NCBI GenBank assembly: GCA_013334575.1
Contig: JAAXXG010000002.1
Location: 69,377 to 133,376 of the forward strand
DNA: 64,000 nt
Direction of reading: 5' to 3'
Source: Candidatus Moraniibacteriota bacterium
GTDB lineage: Bacteria; Patescibacteriota; Minisyncoccia; Moranbacterales; UBA1568
Position 1 is the first letter of the stretch. Every line of letters starts with the position of its first letter. A program made the translations under genes and the position numbers. Below, piece after piece: positions 6,858 to 39,300 of this stretch. The notes beneath the pieces are model-generated. The model ran no database searches. It was given only the letters and a program-made list of their open reading frames with translations, and had not been told where the DNA came from.

Positions 6858-9503
6858 TTATTTATCTGCTGTTTTCTGTCTCTTCTTCGCCGCCCCGAAC
6901 GAGAACCCTTCCTTTCCGGCATCCACCTCGATGCCCGCGGCCGGAACCTTCCCTTCGATGACCTCGAGCGCCAGCGGGTCGAGGATATCGCCCTGAATCA
7001 CGCGTCGCAGCGGCCGCGCCCCATAGAACGGGTCGAACCCCTTCTCGGCAAGACGCTTGCGGGCCGCATCCGTGAACGTGACGGCGATCTCCTTCGCAGC
7101 GAGCCGTTCGGCCACCTTCGCGAGCTCGAGATCCACGATCTTCCGGATGATATCGCGTCCGAGCGGATGGAAGATGACGATCTCATCGATACGGTTGAGG
7201 AACTCCGGACGGAAGGTTTCCCGGAGGCTCGACATCACCTTGGTACGGATCGCCTCCTCGGAAAGCTCCTCCTCTCCCTTCTTCGGTTTCTCCTCGCTGA
7301 ACCCGAGCCGCTCCGCCCTCGTAAGGGTCTCGGACCCGACATTCGACGTCATGATGATGACCGTATTCTTGAACGATACCGTCCGCCCCTTCGCATCGGT
7401 CAGTCGTCCGTCGTCGAGGATCTGCAGCAGGATATTGAACACGTCGGGATGCGCCTTCTCGATCTCGTCGAAGAGGATCACGGCATACGGCCGGCGGCGG
7501 ACCTTCTCGGTGAGCTGCCCGCCCTCGTCGTAACCGACGTATCCCGGCGGCGACCCGATGAGCTTCGCGGTCGAATGGGATTCCATGTACTCGCTCATGT
7601 CCACGCGCACGAGCGCCCGCTCGTCGTCGAACAGGAATCCGGCAAGCGCCTTCGCGAGTTCGGTCTTACCGACGCCCGTCGTGCCCAGAAAGATGAAGGA
7701 GCCGATGGGGCGCCCCTCCTCGGAAAGTCCGGCCCGAGACCGACGAATGGCGTTCGAAACCGCCTGGATCGCCTCGTCCTGCCCCACGACACGTCTCTCG
7801 AGTTCCCGCTCCATATGAACGAGCTTCTTCGCCTCGGTCTCGAGCATCTTGGAGACGGGAACGCCGGTCCACTTGGATACGACCGCCGCGACGTCTTCCT
7901 CGGTGATCTCCTCCTTGAGGATGGAGCCCGCCTGCTGAAGCTTCGTCAGTTTCTTCTCCTCGGCCGCGAGCGCCTTCTGGATCTCGGGAATCTTCCCGTA
8001 CCGGATCTCGGCGACGCGGTCGAGTTCCCCGCGTCGCTCGGCCATATCGGCTTCCGATTTCAGCCGATCGATATCGGCCTTGTGCGCCCGCAGGCCCGCG
8101 ATCAGATTCCGCTCCCCCTTCCACTGGAGCGAGAGCTTACCCGACTTCTCGCGCAGGTCCGCAAGTTCGCGGTCGAGTTCCGCGACCTTCTTCCCGGACT
8201 TCTCGTCCGAGTCCTTTTCGAGAGCGCGCTTCTCGATCTCCATCCGGCGGATGTTCCGTTCAAGCGTATCGAGTTCGGTCGGCAGCGAATCGATCTCCAT
8301 GCGGCGCAGCGATGCGGCCTCGTCCACGAGGTCGATCGCCTTGTCCGGCAGGAACCGATCGGAAATATACCGCCGGGAAAGCCGCACCGCCGCGACGATC
8401 GCGTCGTCCGTAATGCGGACCCCATGATGCAACTCGTACTTCTCCTTGATGCCGCGCAGGATCGCGATCGCGTCCTCCTCGGACGGTTCGGATACGAAGA
8501 CCGGCTGAAACCGCCGCTCGAACGCCGCGTCCTTCTCGATGTATTTCTGGTATTCCTTGAGGGTCGTGGCGCCGATCGTCCGCAGCTTTCCGCGAGCCAA
8601 AGCGGGTTTGAGCATGTTCGACGCGTCGAGCGTGCCCTCGGTCGCGCCCGCTCCGACGAGCGTATGGATCTCGTCGATGAACAGGATGAACCGGTCGGCG
8701 GAGCGTTCCACCTCCTTCAGGACCGCCTTCAGGCGCTCCTCAAACTCGCCGCGGAACTTAGCACCCGCCAGAAGCGCCCCGAGGTCGAGCGAGATGATCT
8801 CGCGGCCCGTGAGATTCTCCGGCACGTCGCCCGAGACGATCCGCTGCGCGAGCCCCTCGGCGATCGCCGTCTTGCCGGTCCCGGCCTCACCGATCAGGAC
8901 CGGATTGTTCTTCGTCCGGCGCGACAGGACCTGCATCACCCGGCGGATCTCCTCGTCGCGGCCGATAACCGGATCGAGTTTCTCCTCGCGAGCGAGCTTG
9001 GTCAGGTTCACCGCATACTTGTCGAGCGCCTGATACGACGCTTCCGGATTGTCGCTCTCGACACGCGCACCGCCGCGTATTCCCGAGAGCGCCCGGAGAA
9101 CCTTGTCCCGGTCGGCACCGGAACGTTCCAATATCTTTTTCGCCTCGCTCTCGACCGACAGGAGTCCGAGCAGCAGGTGCTCGGTCGAGACGAACGAGTC
9201 TCCCATCGCTTTCATCTCCTTCTCGGCCGCATCGAAGGTCTTCGCGAGCGCCGGCGTAAGATAGAGTTGCGGACCGGTCGACCCCTTCGGGAACGCATCG
9301 ATCACCGAAAGCGTCGCGCCCTTGAGCGCGGAGAGGTCCGCTCCGGCCTGCGAGAGCGCGACCGGAACGACCGAATCCTCCTGAAGGAGAAGCGCGTAGA
9401 GCAGGTGCTCCGGACGAAACTCGGCGTTCCCCCGCGAAAGCGCGTTCTCCTGCGCGTTACGCAGCGCCTCCTGGCTCTTCTGCGTGAAATTGCTGATATT
9501 CAT
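6858..9503 (-). CDS. clpB: ATP-dependent chaperone ClpB
   Basis: 881 aa. Clp N-domain, two AAA+ modules ([25 protein letters not shown]) and a long middle coiled-coil typical of ClpB. Confidence 0.9.
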
Positions 9504-9850: not shown

Positions 9851-10300
9851 ATGCTGACACCGGTTAACTTCCAGAATGATCCGCTTCGTCACGCGAAACG
9901 GAGTCTCAGGCTGATTTCCGTTCTGCTTCTCATTCCGATTCTCATTCCAGCCATCTGTTGGATGCTCCCAAAAGGGGCACAGCGTTCCATATCGGCATCC
10001 GCCGATAGATTGGCCTCGTTTCTCGACGGAAATGAGTATCTGATGTATGAAATAACCGCCACTTTCCTGCTTTTCGTTTTCGTTTTCTTCGCCTTACGCA
10101 TCGTCACCGAACTCATCACGACCATCTCCCGCCATTTACTTGAAAGATTCCGCAACGAAACGACCGAGGGCAGGATATTCCGCTTTCATCCCGTACTCAC
10201 GCTCACCTTGACGTTCCTCGCGACCATTTTTTTTCTTTTCACGGAATGGGGGCGGAACTCCATCCTGTTCCTTGCTAACATACTCTTTCTCTCGAACTAG
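9851..10300 (+). CDS. hypothetical small membrane protein
   Basis: AAGGAG about 7 nt upstream of the ATG. 149 aa with 3-4 hydrophobic segments. Confidence 0.4.
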   Translation: MLTPVNFQNDPLRHAKRSLRLISVLLLIPILIPAICWMLPKGAQRSISASADRLASFLDGNEYLMYEITATFLLFVFVFFALRIVTELITTISRHLLERFRNETTEGRIFRFHPVLTLTLTFLATIFFLFTEWGRNSILFLANILFLSN

Positions 10301-10363
10301 CGAGCCGAAAGAACAAAAAAAGGCATGTAACCATGCCTTTTTTTATTTTCGAATCCGTATCCG

Positions 10364-11629
10364 TCACTCCTTCCGCAGGGCTTCCATCGGAGAAAGACGG
10401 GAAGCGCGAACCGCGGGAGAGAGCCCGAACAGGACTCCTACCGCGACCGAGAACCCCGCCCCGAGCAGGAGCGAACGCGGTGTGAGTACAAGCGGAACGG
10501 AAAAGCCCGCGCGACCGAGGGCGAGCGACGACGCCCAGGTGAACGCGACACCGAGTGCGATACCGATAAGACCGCCGAGCCCCGTCACGATGACCGCCTC
10601 GACAAGAAACTGCGACAGGACGTCCCGTGATTTCGCACCGACCGCCTTGCGCAAGCCGATTTCGCCCGTACGCTCGGCAACTGAAACGTACATGACGTTC
10701 ATGATACCGACCCCCCCGACGATGAGCGAGATGGACGTGAGCGCGACCAGGAGGATCGAGATGGTCCCGACCACGTCGCCGAGGGTCTTCTGCGCCTCCT
10801 TGGTCGACGTCACCGCGAAATCGTCCCGCGATGGATCCTCGATATCGTGCTCCTTCCGAAGAAGCCGCGTGATGAGATCCACCGTCTCCTCCTCCCGTCC
10901 CGGGTCCTCCATGCGGACCGAGATCATCTGCACATAGTCGACACCGAGCAGCTTCTTCTGCAACGTCCGAATCGGAACGTATGCCATGGCGTCGAGGTCA
11001 AAGAAGGCGGCCGAGCCGCGTTTCCCGAGCGTGCCGATCACCCGGTACCGCTCTCCGGAAATCGTGACAGACTCCCCGACCGCGTCGCGGTCCCCGAAGA
11101 ACGACCGCTTCACCCCGTATCCGAGGACGATGACCCTGGAAAGGCTCTCATCCTCCTCGGACGAATAGAACCGACCGCTCTCGAGCTTCAGGTTGGAATC
11201 GACGAGCGGCGCACCGGCGCCGGCGCCGAACAGCATGACCCGTTTTCCGACGGAACCATAGGTAGCCCGTTCCTGCGCGATACTGCCGGCGTACGAAGCC
11301 AGGACGTTCGGTAGCCGATCGACCCGTTCCTCGTCGTCGAGCGTCAGCGTGGTTATCTGAATACCCTGCGCAATACCGCCGGAGTTTTCCGTCGAGGTCT
11401 TGCCGGTATTAGGCACCTTGACCTCGATCTGGATCAGGTCCGTCCCAAATGTCTCGACCAGGCCGGTGACATACCCCTTCACCCCGTCGCCGAGCGACAT
11501 GATCACGACTACCGCGAAGACACCGACGACCACGCCAAGCAGTGCGAGCGCGGTCCGCGCCTTGTGCGTACGGATGGTCCGGACCGCGAAGAGCACCGGA
11601 CGGAAAAAGGTGGATCGGAAGAGAGACAT
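10364..11629 (-). CDS. ABC transporter permease, MacB/FtsX family
   Basis: 421 aa. N-terminal TM helix, large extracytoplasmic domain and a C-terminal FtsX-like 3-TM bundle. Paralogous to 14954..16195. Confidence 0.8.
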   Translation of the reverse strand: MSLFRSTFFRPVLFAVRTIRTHKARTALALLGVVVGVFAVVVIMSLGDGVKGYVTGLVETFGTDLIQIEVKVPNTGKTSTENSGGIAQGIQITTLTLDDEERVDRLPNVLASYAGSIAQERATYGSVGKRVMLFGAGAGAPLVDSNLKLESGRFYSSEEDESLSRVIVLGYGVKRSFFGDRDAVGESVTISGERYRVIGTLGKRGSAAFFDLDAMAYVPIRTLQKKLLGVDYVQMISVRMEDPGREEETVDLITRLLRKEHDIEDPSRDDFAVTSTKEAQKTLGDVVGTISILLVALTSISLIVGGVGIMNVMYVSVAERTGEIGLRKAVGAKSRDVLSQFLVEAVIVTGLGGLIGIALGVAFTWASSLALGRAGFSVPLVLTPRSLLLGAGFSVAVGVLFGLSPAVRASRLSPMEALRKE

Positions 11630-32540: not shown

Positions 32541-35500
32541 ATGTCCGATTTCGTCCACCTCCACGTCCGGTCGCACTATTCGCTCCTCAACGCCCTCCCG
32601 AAAATCGAGGGGCTCATCGCCGAGGCGAAAAAGTATGGCATGGACGCGCTTGCGCTCACCGACACATCCAACATGTACGGCGCGGTCGAGTTCTACGTGC
32701 GCTGCAAGGACGCCGGCCTAAAGGCGATCATCGGGACCGAGCTGCACGTCGTGAAGGATCATACGAGCCGGACGCCGTCGGCCGACGACCGGCCGCGCAA
32801 CACGATCGTCCTGCTCGCGACGAACGAAACCGGCTATCACAACCTCCTCGAACTCGTCTCGAAGGCGCAGCTCGACGGCTTCTACTACAAGGCCCGCGTC
32901 GACAAGAACCTCCTCAGGCAGCATCACGAGGGGCTCATCGCGCTTTCCGGCAACATGACCGGCGAGATTCCGGCGAACCTCATCTACGACAACTACGAGG
33001 CCGCCAAGGCCGCGGCGATCGACTACCGGGACATCTTCGGGGAGGACAACTTCTTCCTCGAGCTCGGTCCGAACATCGAATACGAGAGTCAGGCGACCGT
33101 CAACGCGGGACTCCGACAGATCCACGAGGAAACCGGCATCCCGCTCGTTGCGGCGAGCGACGTCACCTACCTCCGACCGGAAGACCGCGACACGCACGAC
33201 ATCCTCCTGTGCATCCAGAACAACTGGACCGTCGCGCAGGAGAACCGGCCGCGCATGACACATCTCGACCTCTCTTTCCGCAGTCCCGAGGAGATGGAAA
33301 TCCTCTTCCGCGACTACCCCGATGCGATCGCGAACACGAGGCGCATCGCCGACCGCTGCGACCTGAAGATCAAACTCGGCGAGACGCAGCTTCCGCACTT
33401 CGACGTGCCGGAAGGACTGACCGCCGACTCGTATCTCAGACAGCTTTGCGAGGAGGGACTCGTGAAACGGTACGGGACGACGGACGTGGACCAGACCCAC
33501 CGGCAGCGGCTCGACTACGAACTGGACGTTATCGAGAAGACCGGCTTCGCGTCGTACTTCCTCATCGTCGCCGACTTCGTGAACTGGGCCAAAAAAAACG
33601 GGGTCGTCGTCGGACCGGGCCGTGGTTCGGCCGCCGGTTCGTTCGTCGCGTACCTGACCGAGATCACCAACATCGACCCTATCAAGTACGATCTTCTCTT
33701 CGAGCGGTTCCTCAATCCGGAACGTATCTCGATGCCGGACGTCGACATGGACTTCGCCGACGACCGACGCGACGCGGTGCTCGAATACGTCCGTCAGCGA
33801 TACGGCCGCGACCACGTCGCGCAGATCATCACCTTCGGGACGATGGCCGCCAAGGCCGCCATCCGCGACACCGGCCGGGCACTCGGATTCCCCTACGCCT
33901 TCTGCGACCAGATCTCGAAACTCATCCCGATGTTCACGTCGCTGTCGAAGGCCGTGGAAGAGGTCCCCGACCTCAAGGCGCTTTACGACGGAAACCCGGA
34001 CGCGAGACGCATCATCGACACCGCCAAGAAACTCGAGGGCAACGCGCGCCACGCCTCGGTCCACGCCTGCGGCGTCGTCATCACCAAGGATCCCGTCACC
34101 GCCTACTCGCCGCTCCAGAAGGTCGCGGGCCACGGCGACGCGGCCGTGACGCAGTACGCCTCGCAGTCCAAACTCTCCGCGGTGGAGAAGATCGGCCTTC
34201 TCAAGATGGACTTCCTCGGCCTCAAGAACCTCACGATCATCCAGAACACCGTCCGCATCATCCGCGCACTCGGGAAGTTCCCGGACCTCGCGGAGCGACT
34301 CGGGATCGACCCGGAGAAAGGCTCGGCCGCGGACGTGATGGACCGGATCCCGCTCGACGACGAGGCGACCTACCGGCTGCTCCAGGAAGCCCGCACGACT
34401 GGCGTGTTCCAGCTGGAAAGTAACGGGATGAAACGCTATCTCAAGCAGCTCAAGCCGACCGTCTTCGAAGACATCGTCGCGATGGTCGCCCTCTACCGTC
34501 CGGGGCCGATGGAGTGGATCCCCGACTTCATCGACGGCAAACACGGCCGGAAGGTCGTGGAATACCTGCACCCCAAGCTCGAGCCGATCCTCCGCAACAC
34601 CTACGGGGTCGCCGTCTATCAGGAACAGGTCATGCAGATCGCGCGCGACCTGGCCGGATTCACCCTCGGCGAGGCGGACGTGCTCCGCAAGGCCATGGGA
34701 AAGAAGATCAAGGAGCTCATCGCCGAGCAACGCGAGAAGTTCATCGAGCGCGCCGTACAGGAGGGCGTACAGAAGAAGATCGCCGAACAGGTCTTCGCCT
34801 TCATCGAACCGTTCGCCGGATACGGGTTCAACCGCTCCCACGCCGCCTGCTACGCGCTCGTCGGCTACCAGACCGCCTTCCTCAAGGCACACTACCCCGC
34901 CGAATTCATGGCCGCGCTCCTTACGAGCGACCAGAACGACACCGACCGTATCGCCATCGAGGTCGAGGAAACACGCCAGATCGGCGTCGAGGTACTCCCG
35001 CCGGACGTGAACGAAAGTTTCGAGGACTTCGCCGTCATCAAGGGGGACGACGAGAAGGAACGCATCCGGTTCGGTCTCAACGCCATCAAGAACGTGGGAC
35101 GCCCCGCCGCCGAAGAGATCGTCCGCGTCCGCAAACAAGACGGGCCGTTCGCCTCGATGGAAGACCTGCTCGAACGGGTCCGCGTAAAAGACCTGAACAA
35201 GAAGTCGCTCGAAGCGCTCTCCAAGGTCGGCGCGCTCGACCGGTTCGGAGAGCGGAATCTTCTCCTCGAGAACCTCGACGCGATCATCTCCTTCGCCAAG
35301 AATATCGACAAGATCAAGGACACCCACCAGGACAGCCTCTTCGGCGGGATGACGCTCGAGAAGCCGGTCATACGCTTCACGCCACCCGGACGTCCCGCGA
35401 CGAAGAAGGAACGTCTCTCGTGGGAGAAGCAGCTCATCGGCCTCTACATCACCGACCACCCCGTCTCCGACTACGAAGACTACCTGCGCGAGATAGCCCG

Positions 35501-36098
35501 TCCGGTCCGAGACCTCGAGACGCTGCCTGACGGCGCCCAGGTCCGCATAGGCGGCGTGGTCGCGACGGTCCGCAAGATCCTCTCCAAGAACGGACAGCCG
35601 ATGTTCTTCGTCGGGGTCGAGGACCTCACCGGCCGGATCGAGGTCGTCGTCTTCCCCCGGGTCGCCGCCGAGACCGAATCGCTCTGGGTCGAGGACAGCC
35701 TCGTCATCGTGGACGGGAAGGTGAACCGCAAGGACGGTATGACCAAGGTCATGGCCGATACCGGCAGCCGCCTTGACGAGACGGAGATAGCCCGATACCG
35801 TTCGATCAAGCTCACGAGGAAGCGCCACGAACGCCCGAGGGCGGAATCTTCCGCGACCGGTCAGGAGAAGGCCGCCACGCCTCCGGAACGTCGCTACACG
35901 CTCGTCCTCGACGAGGCATCGGCATCGGAAGCGCTCAACCGTCTCTCCGAGGAGCTCGGCCGACTCCCGAAAGGCGAGGACCGCATCTTCCTCCGAGTCG
36001 CCGGAAAACTGATCCGGACCGCCTACGCCGTAACGCTCGACGACGCGGCAAAGGACCGCCTCGCCCGGATTCCCGGAGCGCGGAGTGCCGAAGGATAG
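32541..36098 (+). CDS. dnaE: DNA polymerase III alpha subunit
   Basis: PHP domain N-terminus (HLHVRSHYSLL), polymerase core and OB fold. 1185 aa from MSDFVHLH. Confidence 0.9.
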   Translation: MSDFVHLHVRSHYSLLNALPKIEGLIAEAKKYGMDALALTDTSNMYGAVEFYVRCKDAGLKAIIGTELHVVKDHTSRTPSADDRPRNTIVLLATNETGYHNLLELVSKAQLDGFYYKARVDKNLLRQHHEGLIALSGNMTGEIPANLIYDNYEAAKAAAIDYRDIFGEDNFFLELGPNIEYESQATVNAGLRQIHEETGIPLVAASDVTYLRPEDRDTHDILLCIQNNWTVAQENRPRMTHLDLSFRSPEEMEILFRDYPDAIANTRRIADRCDLKIKLGETQLPHFDVPEGLTADSYLRQLCEEGLVKRYGTTDVDQTHRQRLDYELDVIEKTGFASYFLIVADFVNWAKKNGVVVGPGRGSAAGSFVAYLTEITNIDPIKYDLLFERFLNPERISMPDVDMDFADDRRDAVLEYVRQRYGRDHVAQIITFGTMAAKAAIRDTGRALGFPYAFCDQISKLIPMFTSLSKAVEEVPDLKALYDGNPDARRIIDTAKKLEGNARHASVHACGVVITKDPVTAYSPLQKVAGHGDAAVTQYASQSKLSAVEKIGLLKMDFLGLKNLTIIQNTVRIIRALGKFPDLAERLGIDPEKGSAADVMDRIPLDDEATYRLLQEARTTGVFQLESNGMKRYLKQLKPTVFEDIVAMVALYRPGPMEWIPDFIDGKHGRKVVEYLHPKLEPILRNTYGVAVYQEQVMQIARDLAGFTLGEADVLRKAMGKKIKELIAEQREKFIERAVQEGVQKKIAEQVFAFIEPFAGYGFNRSHAACYALVGYQTAFLKAHYPAEFMAALLTSDQNDTDRIAIEVEETRQIGVEVLPPDVNESFEDFAVIKGDDEKERIRFGLNAIKNVGRPAAEEIVRVRKQDGPFASMEDLLERVRVKDLNKKSLEALSKVGALDRFGERNLLLENLDAIISFAKNIDKIKDTHQDSLFGGMTLEKPVIRFTPPGRPATKKERLSWEKQLIGLYITDHPVSDYEDYLREIARPVRDLETLPDGAQVRIGGVVATVRKILSKNGQPMFFVGVEDLTGRIEVVVFPRVAAETESLWVEDSLVIVDGKVNRKDGMTKVMADTGSRLDETEIARYRSIKLTRKRHERPRAESSATGQEKAATPPERRYTLVLDEASASEALNRLSEELGRLPKGEDRIFLRVAGKLIRTAYAVTLDDAAKDRLARIPGARSAEG

Positions 36099-36123
36099 GC
36101 CGCCGGAAACGCAAGACGAACCT

Positions 36124-37050
36124 ATGGAAACGATCGTCGTGGTCGGACCGACCGCGTCGGGAAAATCCGACTATGCCATCTCGCTCGCGCGCGAGACCGG
36201 CGGAGAGATCGTCTCCGCCGATTCGCGGCAGGTCTACCGCGGGATGAATATCGGCACCGGGAAGGTTCCCAGAGATACGTTCAATGTAGAGACGGGGCAT
36301 ACCCCGTCTCTACGGAATGACATTTCGTATATCTCCGGCGGTATCCGGCATCACCTTCTCGACGTCGCCTCGCCGAAACGGACCTATACCGTCACGCATT
36401 TCCTCCGTGATGCCAGGGCGGCGATCGACGACATACGGAAACGCGGCAAAACGCCCATCATCTGCGGCGGGACGAACTTCTGGATAGAGGCGCTCGTCTC
36501 CGATACCTCGTTTCCCGCGGTCAGACCCGATCCGCCCCTCCGAAAAACGCTCGGCCGACTCACCGCGCCCGAACTCTTCACGATGCTCGAGGAAAAGGAC
36601 CCCGACCGCGCGAAGACGATCGACCGTCACAATAAGGTCCGGCTCATCCGGGCACTCGAGATCGTCGCGACGCTCGGTAAAGTACCGACAAGCGGAACAA
36701 GGACTCAAGAATCAGGAATGAAGCGGGATGAGAAATTCCGATTCATCGGAGTCGATATCTCACGAGAACAGTTACGTGAAAATATCGTGAGACGACTCGA
36801 TAAGCGGCTCCGGGAAGGGATGGTCGACGAAGTACGACGGCTCCGCGAGGAAGAAGGAATCTCCTGGAAGCGCCTCGAGGGATTTGGACTCGAGTACCGC
36901 TGGTGCGCGCTGTTCCTTCAAGGAAAGATAACGGAAACGGAACTGCGCGACGGTATCACCCGCGACAGCCTCTCCTACGCCAAGCGGCAAATGACGTTTC
37001 TTCGGAAACTGGAACGAAACGGGATACGGATAGAATGGAGGAGAATTTGA
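36124..37050 (+). CDS. miaA: tRNA dimethylallyltransferase
   Basis: P-loop GPTASGKS, DSRQVYRGMNIGTGK and HHLLD motifs. Contains a 28-nt palindromic element in-frame at 36286-36313. Confidence 0.85.
   Translation: METIVVVGPTASGKSDYAISLARETGGEIVSADSRQVYRGMNIGTGKVPRDTFNVETGHTPSLRNDISYISGGIRHHLLDVASPKRTYTVTHFLRDARAAIDDIRKRGKTPIICGGTNFWIEALVSDTSFPAVRPDPPLRKTLGRLTAPELFTMLEEKDPDRAKTIDRHNKVRLIRALEIVATLGKVPTSGTRTQESGMKRDEKFRFIGVDISREQLRENIVRRLDKRLREGMVDEVRRLREEEGISWKRLEGFGLEYRWCALFLQGKITETELRDGITRDSLSYAKRQMTFLRKLERNGIRIEWRRI
36286..36313. repeat. perfect 28-nt palindromic element (REP-like), copy 1, inside the miaA coding sequence
   Basis: gtagagacggggcataccccgtctctac is translated in frame as VETGHTPSL. 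Confidence 0.75.
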
Positions 37051-37063
37051 AATATCGAATTGG

Positions 37064-37100
37064 ACAGTAAAGACGCCTCAGTGGGGCGTCTTTTATGTTT
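37064..37100. terminator. bidirectional terminator / REP-like hairpin between miaA and the RAYT gene
   Basis: aagacgcc tcagtgg ggcgtctt stem followed by TTTATGTTTGATTT. The stem core gacgcc/ggcgtc resembles copy 3 of the palindromic element. Confidence 0.5.
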
Positions 37101-37632
37101 GATTTATCGGATTCTCCTCATCCGTATCCCATTCCCGAGGATTGATACGGATATATTCCTGGATCAACCGTAGAGACTCCTCGTTCCGGATAATATGATC
37201 ATGGAATCGCGATTGCCATGAGAATCCGGATTCGGCATGCGACGCCCGGATTCTTTTCGTACAAACAGATTTGAACGACCCGACAATCGTCGCCAAAGTC
37301 GGTCGTTTTCGTGGTTCACTGTTTTCCGTAGAGACGGGGCATGCCCCGTCTCTACACGGAAGGATCTCGATGATTCCGTGAACATGATTCGGCATTACAA
37401 CAAATTCATCCGTTCGGATATCTCGAAAATGGTCCGGGATACTACCCCAGCAATCCCGGACGATTTCCCCGATTCCGGATAATGTCATCTCCCCGTTTTC
37501 GATATCGCCGAACCAGAGACACCGATCCGCGGCACAGATGGTCACGAAATATGCGCCAGGTTGGGAATAATCATATCCGGGTAAGCGTGATGATCGAATC
37601 CTGTATTTGCCTTTGTAGTTATCCGCTACCAT
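37093..37632 (-). CDS. REP-associated tyrosine transposase (RAYT, IS200/Y1 family)
   Basis: YRIRSSRLPGYDYSQPGAYFVTICAADR; HuH motif VVMPNHVHGIIEI; C-terminal WQSRFHDHIIRNEESLRLIQEYIRINPREW. Flanked by REP-like hairpins. Confidence 0.75.
   Translation of the reverse strand: MVADNYKGKYRIRSSRLPGYDYSQPGAYFVTICAADRCLWFGDIENGEMTLSGIGEIVRDCWGSIPDHFRDIRTDEFVVMPNHVHGIIEILPCRDGACPVSTENSEPRKRPTLATIVGSFKSVCTKRIRASHAESGFSWQSRFHDHIIRNEESLRLIQEYIRINPREWDTDEENPINQT
37327..37354. repeat. 28-nt palindromic element, copy 2, inside the RAYT coding sequence
   Basis: gtagagacggggcatgccccgtctctac, read on the minus strand as CRDGACPVST. Confidence 0.75.
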
Positions 37633-37667
37633 AAACGTACATACATCATATCCGATTCCCTATAACG

Positions 37668-37696
37668 GTAGAGACGCCCCGGCGGGGCGTCTCTAC
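37668..37696. repeat. palindromic element, variant copy 3, upstream of the RAYT gene
   Basis: gtagagacgcccc ggc ggggcgtctctac has the same outer arms with an inverted inner core. Confidence 0.7.
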
Positions 37697-37721
37697 GGGA
37701 AAAGAAACAAATCAGAAAACC

Positions 37722-37795
37722 CTATCCTTTCATCTTCCCCTTCAGGATCTCCGCCACGACCTCCGGGTTGGCCTTCCCCTTCGTTTCCTTTCGGC
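37722..37795 (-). pseudogene. tandem remnant of the gatB 3' end
   Basis: The rc encodes KETKGKANPEVVAEILKGKMKG*, against KETKGKANPQVVSEILRKRLEA* for the true GatB C-terminus a few nt upstream. Confidence 0.5.
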
Positions 37796-37818
37796 CTGAG
37801 GCTGATCCGCGGTCGGAT

Positions 37819-39300
37819 CTACGCCTCCAGTCTTTTCCGGAGTATCTCGGAAACCACCTGCGGATTCGCTTTTCCTTTGGTTTCCTTCATCACCTGGCCG
37901 ATGAGGAACTGAAACGCGTTCTGCTTTCCGGCATGGTAATCCTCGACAGACTTCGCGTTCGCGGCAAGAATCGCGTCGACGATGCCTTCGAGCTCCCCCG
38001 TGTCGCTCACCTGCGCGAGATTGAGCCGGTCGATGATATGCGACGGATCGTTATCCTCGCCCTTGAGCATCTCACCGAGGACCGTCTGAGCTGCGCTCGA
38101 ATTGATTTTTCCATCGGCAATTATCACGATGAATTCCGCATAGTTCTCGGGAGTGATTCCCGACTCACTGATGGTTTTTCCGGATTCGACCAGTCGTTTT
38201 CGCAATTCGGTCACGATATAGTTCGCGGCGAGCCGGATCGCCTTCTCCTCCCCGGCGACCAACTCCTTGGAATCTTTCTTTTCTCCGATCTCGCTCACGA
38301 CCGCTTCGAAATAATCCGCGGTCGGCTTCTCGGCGGTGATCACCGAGACCGCTTCAGACGACAGTCCGTATTGCTTCGCAAACCGTTCTTCCTTGGCTGC
38401 CGGCAGTTCGGGAATGGTCAGACGGAGCGCCTCGATGTCCGCTTCCGAAAATGAGAAAGGCGGGATGTCCGGCTCGGGGAAATAGCGGTAATCGTGCGCA
38501 GACTCCTTCTTGCGCTGCGAAACGGTTTTCTGTCCGTTCTCGTCCCATCCGCGCGTCTCCTGTTCGATCTTCTCGCCCGATTCGAGCGCCTTCGTCTGTC
38601 GGGCGATCTCGTATTCGATCGCCCCGGCAACCGCCTTGAACGAGTTGAGGTTCTTCACCTCGACCTTGGTACCGGACAGCCGGTCCTCACCTTCCGCATA
38701 CAGCGAGATATTCGCCTCGCAGCGCATCTGTCCCTTTTCCATGTCCGCGTCCGAAATGTCGAGATACCGGAGGATCTGCCGAAGCTTCTGGCAGAAGAGC
38801 CGCGCGTCGGCGGCGTTGTCGATATCCGGCTCGGTCACGAGTTCCATGAGCGGCACCCCCGAACGGTTCAGGTCGACCAGGGTATGTTTGGTACCGGCGG
38901 GATGATACAGCTTGCCGGTGTCCTCCTCCATGTGGATCCGGGTGATGCCGACCGTCTTGCCCTCGCGGATCGTGAGCGCCCCCTTCCCGCAGAACGGTTC
39001 GTCGTACTGCGAGATCTGGTAGCCTTTCGGAAGATCGGGATAGAAATAGTTCTTGCGGTCGAACTTCGAGTGCCTGGCGAGTTCGCAGCCGAGCGCGAGT
39101 CCGGCCCGCTGCACCGATTCGATTGCCAGCCGGTTCGGAGTCGGAAGCGCTCCGGGCTGTGCGGTACAGACCGGGCAGATGTGTACGTTCGGTTCGGCCT
39201 CCTGTCCGAGACCGTTCCTGCACGAGCAGAACATCTTGGACTCGGTCCGAAGCTCGACATGGACCTCCATACCGATGACGGGAGTGTATTTCATAATCAT
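37819..39300 (-). CDS. gatB: Asp-tRNA(Asn)/Glu-tRNA(Gln) amidotransferase subunit B
   Basis: MIMKYTPVIGMEVHVEL N-terminus and C-terminal GatB/YqeY tail. The upstream ORF extension is Arg-rich read-through. Confidence 0.9.
   Translation of the reverse strand: MIMKYTPVIGMEVHVELRTESKMFCSCRNGLGQEAEPNVHICPVCTAQPGALPTPNRLAIESVQRAGLALGCELARHSKFDRKNYFYPDLPKGYQISQYDEPFCGKGALTIREGKTVGITRIHMEEDTGKLYHPAGTKHTLVDLNRSGVPLMELVTEPDIDNAADARLFCQKLRQILRYLDISDADMEKGQMRCEANISLYAEGEDRLSGTKVEVKNLNSFKAVAGAIEYEIARQTKALESGEKIEQETRGWDENGQKTVSQRKKESAHDYRYFPEPDIPPFSFSEADIEALRLTIPELPAAKEERFAKQYGLSSEAVSVITAEKPTADYFEAVVSEIGEKKDSKELVAGEEKAIRLAANYIVTELRKRLVESGKTISESGITPENYAEFIVIIADGKINSSAAQTVLGEMLKGEDNDPSHIIDRLNLAQVSDTGELEGIVDAILAANAKSVEDYHAGKQNAFQFLIGQVMKETKGKANPQVVSEILRKRLEA

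Follow-up and report, generated by a model that had tools for sequence, protein, structure and literature searches.

An in-frame double-foot REP within a RAYT-type transposase gene of a Candidatus Moraniibacteriota genome, probably a copy of the enzyme's own putative cognate element

The gene for a RAYT/TnpAREP-type Y1 (HUH) transposase in a Candidatus Moraniibacteriota genome carries a perfect palindrome of 28 nt within its coding sequence. This palindrome is probably a copy of the putative cognate 'double-foot' REP (5' GTAG ... CTAC 3') of the enzyme that the gene encodes, a candidate subclass-2.4 TnpAREP or group-4 RAYT, and it lies in frame in a loop of its own gene, where it appears to be kept by birth-and-death. 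The sequence, GTAGAGACGGGGCATGCCCCGTCTCTAC, consists of two halves of 14 nt and occupies positions 37328-37355 of the window, which is the entire 64-kb stretch of DNA that was analysed. The original prediction had recognised the palindrome inside the gene but placed it one base off, at 37327-37354. With its GTAG and CTAC feet and this core it is designated type A. Inside the open reading frame at 37093-37632 of the minus strand it is translated as C93-RDGACPVS-T102 (residues 93-102), between the HVH motif (H83, H85) and F120-K121-S122; the earlier reading of a minus-strand CRDGACPVST in the variable stretch between the HuH motif and FKS agrees with this translation. No match to GTAGAGACGGGGCATGCCCCGTCTCTAC was found in 100 dinucleotide-preserving shuffles, even when up to three mismatches were allowed. 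Folded as RNA, the hairpin has an energy of -26.9 kcal/mol (z = -6.3). No U-run follows it, and it is therefore not an intrinsic terminator. On the plus strand, an antisense ORF of 81 codons (37237-37482) reads the palindrome as RRDGACPVST, which is a trivial outcome of the symmetry of the palindrome and no evidence of a gene.

The host gene (37093-37632, minus strand; 179 aa) was assigned by motifs, profiles and fold. Its HUH motif is H83-V-H85 (37378-37386), and the predicted catalytic tyrosine is Y160 in the motif EYIRINP (37153-37155). The Pfam profile Y1_Tnp (PF01797) was just passed, with 23.8 bits against a cutoff of 23. The NCBIfam model NF047646 (REP_Tyr_transpos) gave 63 bits with E = 2.7e-17, below its equivalog cutoff of 80; this model appears to have been built on other TnpAREP subclasses. 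A sequence search of the PDB returned a weak match to the E. coli TnpAREP structure (4er8, E = 0.042). When the two proteins were aligned, Y160 fell on the catalytic Y115, and the residues that contact the GTAG foot were found to be kept, with W139, Q140, H146 and R149 aligning to W94, Q95, H101 and R104 of the E. coli enzyme. Two positions in the GTAG-binding stretch are changed, E100 to D145 and W99 to H144.

An AlphaFold2 model based on 52 sequences had a mean pLDDT of 87.7, and comparing it with the PDB by Foldseek placed 4er8 first, followed by the TnpA proteins of ISDra2 and IS608 (E values of 3e-6 to 1e-5). An HUH motif, a downstream tyrosine and an IS200/TnpAREP fold, the marks of the Y1 HUH superfamily, are hence found together, and GTAG-footed palindromes flank the gene at -64 and at the stop codon, as in a REPtron. 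Judging from motifs and model, the gene codes for a HUH/Tyr enzyme that is intact and has the TnpAREP fold, and the earlier identification of the gene as a RAYT-type Y1 transposase is borne out by Pfam, NCBIfam, the 4er8 alignment and Foldseek alike. In the model, residues 91-112 form a coil with a pLDDT of about 61-64, flanked by a strand (83-90) and a helix (113-131). The ten residues encoded by the palindrome are thus predicted to lie in a poorly ordered surface loop after the HUH strand, that is, between this strand (beta3) and the next helix (alphaC). The GC content of the gene is 48.7%, compared to 58.2% for the 64-kb window; the gene is compositionally atypical, which fits acquisition or exchange.

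What is conserved at this loop is seen best when the relatives of the protein are compared at the DNA level. A protein homology search retrieved 7187 relatives. In the alignment of the best of these, relatives that are about 50% identical to the window protein carry differing peptides at the same loop: RDGACPVST, VETPRRGVST, VGATHASPL, RGTACRAPT and RDEAMPRLY, together with decayed versions. VGATHASPL and RGTACRAPT are two frames of palindromes of the form GTAGGGGC...GCCCCTAC. Four homologues that contain RDGACPVST (P0006, P0008, P0016 and P0088) were picked by protein similarity alone, and all four use the exact 28-mer to encode the peptide, even though, as DNA, the genes have identities of only 63-73% and GC contents of 32-46%. 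Over all genes, the exact 28-mer is retained at GC contents of 32-51%.

Scanning metagenomes for the exact 28-mer located it in samples of gut, rumen, termite, lake and groundwater origin, on at least 120 contigs and in at least 121 distinct sequence contexts. Among the matches listed, RAYT-like ORFs hold 9 of 129 exact copies, all at the same loop, and these nine ORFs read the element as VETGHAPSL (seven) or as RDGACPVST (two). These comparisons show that the palindrome is conserved as DNA and that RDGACPVST is its by-product.

It could be argued that CRDGACPVST is a protein-level motif, for instance a metal-binding cysteine pair, which is kept by selection on the peptide and whose palindromy is incidental. 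The peptide does contain two cysteines five residues apart, and it recurs in 12 of the best 120 homologues. However, the same DNA gives VETGHAPSL in other RAYTs, REP-encoded peptides with no relation to it (VETPRRGVST, VGATHASPL, RGTACRAPT) occupy the site elsewhere, and unrelated ORFs also gain RDGACPVST where the 28-mer has landed in them. The identical codons in the four genes tested, despite their range of GC content, and the low model confidence of the loop speak against a peptide motif as well. We therefore consider such a motif extremely improbable; as explanations, both a protein motif and chance are in effect excluded. The original prediction, that the stretch derives from the element, had named as its own refutation the finding of the same residues encoded by non-palindromic DNA; the homologues use the identical palindrome, and others read it in another frame.

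Several of the metagenome copies lie in conspicuous surroundings. Among the matches listed (L081-L200), copies of the exact 28-mer come from widely differing habitats and apparently from different phyla, and some lie inside ORFs of up to 1173 codons. Some of the listed copies fall in apparent T9SS C-terminal sorting domains (PFNPTT.IK...VETGHAPSLQ...YDVLG). One contig, L118, has three copies of the 28-mer in 1.3 kb, inside a single ORF of 208 codons.

Each strand of the 28-mer has two open frames, VETGHAPSL and RDGACPVST, and one frame with a TAG. Because the palindrome is identical to its reverse complement, both strands offer the same frames, and four of the six frame/orientation combinations are open. 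The original prediction was correct in that one of three frames contains TAG, but its conclusion that tolerated insertions must land in 2 of 6 combinations is wrong. It had also proposed to compare the frames of copies inside ORFs; run on the metagenome contexts, this comparison found both open frames in use. Stop-free stretches of at least 200 codons span 37 of the 121 contexts, with 22 cases in the first and 15 in the second of the two open frames, among the matches listed. In the genome loci, the GT[AG]G foot of the internal REPs took no codon offset other than 0 (18 cases) and 1 (14 cases).

Around the 28-mer we detected neither a conserved target nor a conserved junction; the only bias was for A at positions +1 and +2 (50% and 43%), and the palindrome is not extended. 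Junctions around the 28-mer are likewise not conserved among the RAYT homologues. The REP units measure 28 and 29 nt, neither of which is a multiple of three. A mobile unit that is a multiple of three (T+28+A) was considered and rejected, as the bases on either side of the 28-mer pair only as often as chance predicts (26%).

Four related REP copies were found in the 64-kb window, all within 1.4 kb (36286-37696). Besides the internal one, a type A copy lies in miaA at 36286-36313, where it is read in frame as VETGHTPSL. It differs from the internal palindrome by one central mismatch (CATG to CATA), which confirms the earlier view that the two are the same element with one central base different. 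Upstream of the RAYT gene, at 37668-37696, a type B copy forms a palindrome of 29 nt, GTAGAGACGCCCCGGCGGGGCGTCTCTAC, which has the same 9-nt feet as type A and a different core and spans positions -64 to -36 relative to the ATG. It translates to VETPRRGVST, which the orthologues P0003, P0004 and P0005 carry as their internal peptide. The fourth copy is a degenerate type-B-like hairpin at 37069-37093, located between the convergent stop codons of miaA and RAYT and abutting the latter; it is terminator-like, with a T-run on the plus strand. This hairpin was the sole terminator-like match in a promoter and terminator scan that yielded nothing above shuffle expectation. Neither this degenerate copy nor the upstream type B copy figured in the original prediction. 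Scanning 35500-38500 against Rfam gave only a chance sub-threshold snoRNA match (16.9 bits, where the gathering score is 38), and the palindrome region thus holds no known RNA family.

The miaA copy is missing from the miaA genes of three syntenic orthologues, in which other inserts occupy the same variable loop, and it is probably a recent arrival. The loop of MiaA that contains it (about residues 60-88) is hypervariable among the four syntenic orthologues. In the L204 protein this loop contains an insert with the repeat VVGHPE...VVGHPE, perhaps a further palindromic element. At 37722-37787 of the minus strand, in the interval that separates the upstream REP from the true gatB stop (37819), we observed a diverged duplicate of the 3' end of gatB, reading ETKGKANPEVVAEILKGKMKG followed by a stop, where the real gene reads ETKGKANPQVVSEILRKRLEA followed by a stop (41 of 66 nt identical). 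The REP lies within about 10-30 nt of the gatB stop in the orthologues L201 and L204, so that the duplicated gatB end in the window seems to be left over from a rearrangement at the border of the REPtron.

The three closest homologues of the RAYT gene (L201, L202 and L204; 64-72% identity) share the gatB-RAYT-miaA-dnaE context of the window and allow the fate of the internal copy to be followed. In all three, one REP lies at -46 to -64 from the ATG and a second, internal one at +274 to +297. When more distant homologues are included, the upstream REP is found at -46 to -70. A REP or REP core at or beyond the RAYT stop was identified in L204 and in the homologue L206 (+551 to +585, the L204 core being at +585) and, about 1.3 kb farther, in L202 (+1849). 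A layout of REPs upstream, inside and at the stop of the gene thus recurs in orthologues and in distant homologues.

The internal copies themselves are not the same element. Both the window gene and L204 carry type A (28 nt), with one mismatch in the stem in L204, whereas type B (29 nt) is found in both L201 and L202. Across the four orthologues, the window included, the 9-nt feet do not vary, in genes with a mean column identity of 78% and with indels at the junctions. In the alignment, columns 161-340 of the window gene, where HUH motif and REP are located, match L204 at 78-83% identity, compared to only 47-65% for L201 and L202; both ends of the gene are nearer to L201 and L202 than to L204. 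The alignment thus shows the window RAYT gene to be mosaic, a recombinant in which the type A REP is part of a central cassette of about 180 nt. The internal copy turns over, as is seen from the swaps between types A and B, from decayed and tandem copies and from genes that have no REP. We also considered whether the REP type tracks the variant of the central protein region; this is suggestive in the orthologues and is broken by P0019 and others.

Eighty genome loci found by protein patterns were compared. These come from Chloroflexota, Bacteroidota, Cyanobacteria, Gammaproteobacteria, Nitrospirota, Planctomycetota, several candidate phyla and others. Sixty-nine genes with recognisable motifs were searched for stems in the segment from HUH to WQ, with 1091 segments of equal length from the same loci as controls. 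Perfect stems of at least 10 bp were present in 42 of the 69 genes (61%) and in 0.7% of the control segments; for stems of at least 14 bp the figures were 36% and 0.2%. Twenty-three percent of the genes have no stem of 8 bp or more. A strict definition, which requires two intact feet and an unbroken run of at least 8 pairs beginning at the foot, leaves an internal double-foot REP in 31 of 70 genes. Some genes, such as L037, L064 and L074, contain two or three tandem internal copies, others, such as P0060, L006 and L062, are REP-less family members, and many loop peptides are degenerate (for example VETPRWGVS and RDAINRVST). In the flanks, which extended up to 10 kb per side, external copies with the same arm all lie within 1.8 kb of the gene, and 22 of the 31 strict-REP loci have no second copy with the same 10-nt arm.

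The palindrome inside the gene was initially regarded as unusual. It is present in most of the homologues sampled, and REPs in frame in the beta3-alphaC loop are a published hallmark of TnpAREP subclass 2.4, as described by Quentin, Siguier, Chandler and Fichant 2018 (BMC Genomics 19:475, PMC6006769), where TnpAREP proteins are divided into subclasses. In that paper, subclass 2.4 is characterised by the motifs NH[IFV]H, WQ and YIxNNP, a median length of 194 aa and no tail domain (Table 1), by a variable insertion between beta3 and alphaC and by REPs of the 'long' or 'double foot' kind; REPs are abundant in subclasses 2.2 and 2.5, where no internal copies occur. In the scheme of Bertels et al. 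2017 (PMC5581495), subclass 2.4 equals RAYT group 4, whose flanking repeats are low-copy, with about 14 occurrences of a 16-mer per replicon.

The window protein has NHVH, WQ and YIRINP in 179 aa and ends 15 residues after NP with no C-terminal tail; its loop (residues 91-112) contains the 28-nt GTAG...CTAC palindrome in frame, and so do those of its homologues. It fits subclass 2.4, or group 4, as assigned by motifs and architecture rather than by a subclass HMM. With the subclass it shares NHVH, WQ, the YIxxNP tyrosine motif, a length of about 180-194 aa, the lack of a C-terminal tail, the variable beta3-alphaC insertion and, when its homologues are considered, a patchy distribution over many phyla. 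It differs in its tyrosine motif, YIRINP rather than YIxNNP (I for N), and in its host, which the names of the nearest homologues also suggest to be of the Patescibacteria/CPR type, a group absent from the taxa listed for the subclass. The in-gene REP is consequently a further example of a documented subclass hallmark and not a new phenomenon. Relative to the parts of PMC6006769 that were searched, our comparison adds the reading of one 28-mer in two frames, the retention of its exact sequence at 32-51% GC, the A/B core swap among syntenic orthologues and the mosaic gene. Searching the literature for RAYT in CPR genomes and for later work on subclass 2.4 or internal copies returned nothing beyond Quentin 2018.

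Better known systems resemble the window locus in part. With the E. coli TnpAREP and its REP/BIME elements (subclass 2.2, PDB 4ER8) and with the group 3 REPtrons (PMC8266576) it has the HUH/Tyr fold in common, and with the E. coli system also the W, Q, H and R of the GTAG-binding stretch, hairpins with a GTAG foot and REPs that flank the gene. The window protein is, however, only about 21% identical in sequence to the E. coli enzyme, and the E. coli REPs are imperfect, bulged, single-footed and absent from the inside of tnpAREP, whereas the window REP is perfect, double-footed and in the gene. GTAG REPs within protein-coding genes were described by Di Nocera, De Gregorio and Rocco 2013 (PMC3733652); like the Rickettsia palindromic elements (RPE) and the copy studied here, they are in frame and add some ten or more residues. 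Many of the host genes in PMC3733652 function in replication, repair or RNA modification, a pattern into which the miaA copy of the window fits. In those two systems the host genes are unrelated and the sites varied, while here the element sits in the gene of the presumed mobilising enzyme itself, at a single loop that is used recurrently.

The mechanism that we propose draws on the TnpAREP proteins of E. coli, Stenotrophomonas and Marinomonas. By analogy with these, the enzyme would bind the folded single-stranded REP hairpin, the GTAG foot would select a nearby CT or CA cleavage site, and the enzyme would cut and then rejoin the DNA. If it likewise prefers DNA beside its own gene, new or replacement REPs would land in and around this gene. 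TnpAREP biochemistry covers groups 2 and 3 only (Corneloup et al. 2021, PMC8266576), so that binding, cleavage and the preference for nearby DNA are extrapolated to subclass 2.4. Copies in the loop would survive in either stop-free frame when the net length is a multiple of three, because the loop presumably tolerates about ten extra residues. An internal copy would stay REP-like through repeated replacement by, or conversion from, neighbouring REPs and would otherwise decay. Since the internal copy of the window is type A and the upstream copy type B, simple homogenisation between neighbours would not be the whole story.

Of the two origins that the original prediction had offered, insertion of the element or its replacement within the gene is the better supported, and the gene as the source of the element less so. 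Mobility of the REP is supported by the miaA copy that the orthologues lack and by the number of distinct contexts in which the 28-mer occurs. Were the internal sequence of the RAYT gene the ancestral master copy of the dispersed family, one would understand why the internal REP travels with the gene, why many loci have no other copy nearby, and why the window has just one further type A copy, in miaA, which is one base different and absent from orthologues. Close orthologues, however, have another REP type with different junctions at the same loop, the tandem and multiple internal copies resemble repeated arrivals, the family includes REP-less genes, RAYT genes hold only the small share of exact metagenome copies given above for the matches listed, and subclasses 2.2 and 2.5 are rich in REPs that are not internal (PMC6006769). 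An origin of the family from the gene is therefore improbable.

A stronger competitor, which we still regard as unlikely, is that the internal REP is a selected cis-acting element, either because the gene or its mRNA is a target of its own product (autoregulation or self-limitation) or because enzyme and REP are inherited or transferred together. Tolerance alone struggles to explain a hairpin at one loop in at least 61-77% of the genes, given the low-copy repeats of group 4, and selection would also fit. The high occupancy of the loop against a modest copy number, together with units of 28 and 29 nt that are in frame and have no conserved junction, leaves some room for a selected role, if a doubtful one. 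The near-universal presence of the element at this loop across phyla, the persistence of the exact 28-mer over a wide range of GC, the invariant feet in the diverged syntenic orthologues, the conserved upstream/internal/stop layout, the many strict loci with a single copy of their 10-nt arm and the strength of the hairpin (about -27 kcal/mol) all agree with such a role. Against it stand the continuum of decay, with nearly a quarter of the genes below a stem of 8 bp and many degenerate peptides, the stem mismatch of the L204 copy, the REP-less members, the variation in loop position, copy number (1-3) and REP type, and a hairpin that is not an intrinsic terminator. A copy of the putative cognate REP that is maintained by birth-and-death remains our preferred reading. 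If selection does act, the in-gene REP would be a built-in substrate: enzyme and hairpin would be inherited together and could re-seed a REP family after transfer. Such selection would explain the loop occupancy of 61-77%, the survival of the 28-mer at 32-51% GC and the movement of HUH motif and REP as one recombination cassette.

The locus has consequences beyond its own history. It probably extends subclass 2.4 REPtrons to a CPR-type genome, and its clean set of syntenic orthologues lets the turnover of an in-gene REP be followed. It also raises the question why the gene of the enzyme so regularly carries the presumed substrate of that enzyme. REP-encoded peptides (RDGACPVST, VETGHAPSL, VETPRRGVST, VGATHASPL and RGTACRAPT) recur in RAYTs and in unrelated ORFs, and they can yield spurious 'conserved motifs' and false homology, for example tblastn cross-matches between RAYT and miaA. 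Finally, one of the Chloroflexota loci (L042, chromosome OZ244145.1) has two near-identical RAYT genes at 8725-8934 and 10211-10420, about 1.5 kb apart. Both hold the same internal REP, GTAGGGGCGGTTCGCGAACCGCCCCTAC, and a gene that is single-copy as a rule has here been duplicated locally.
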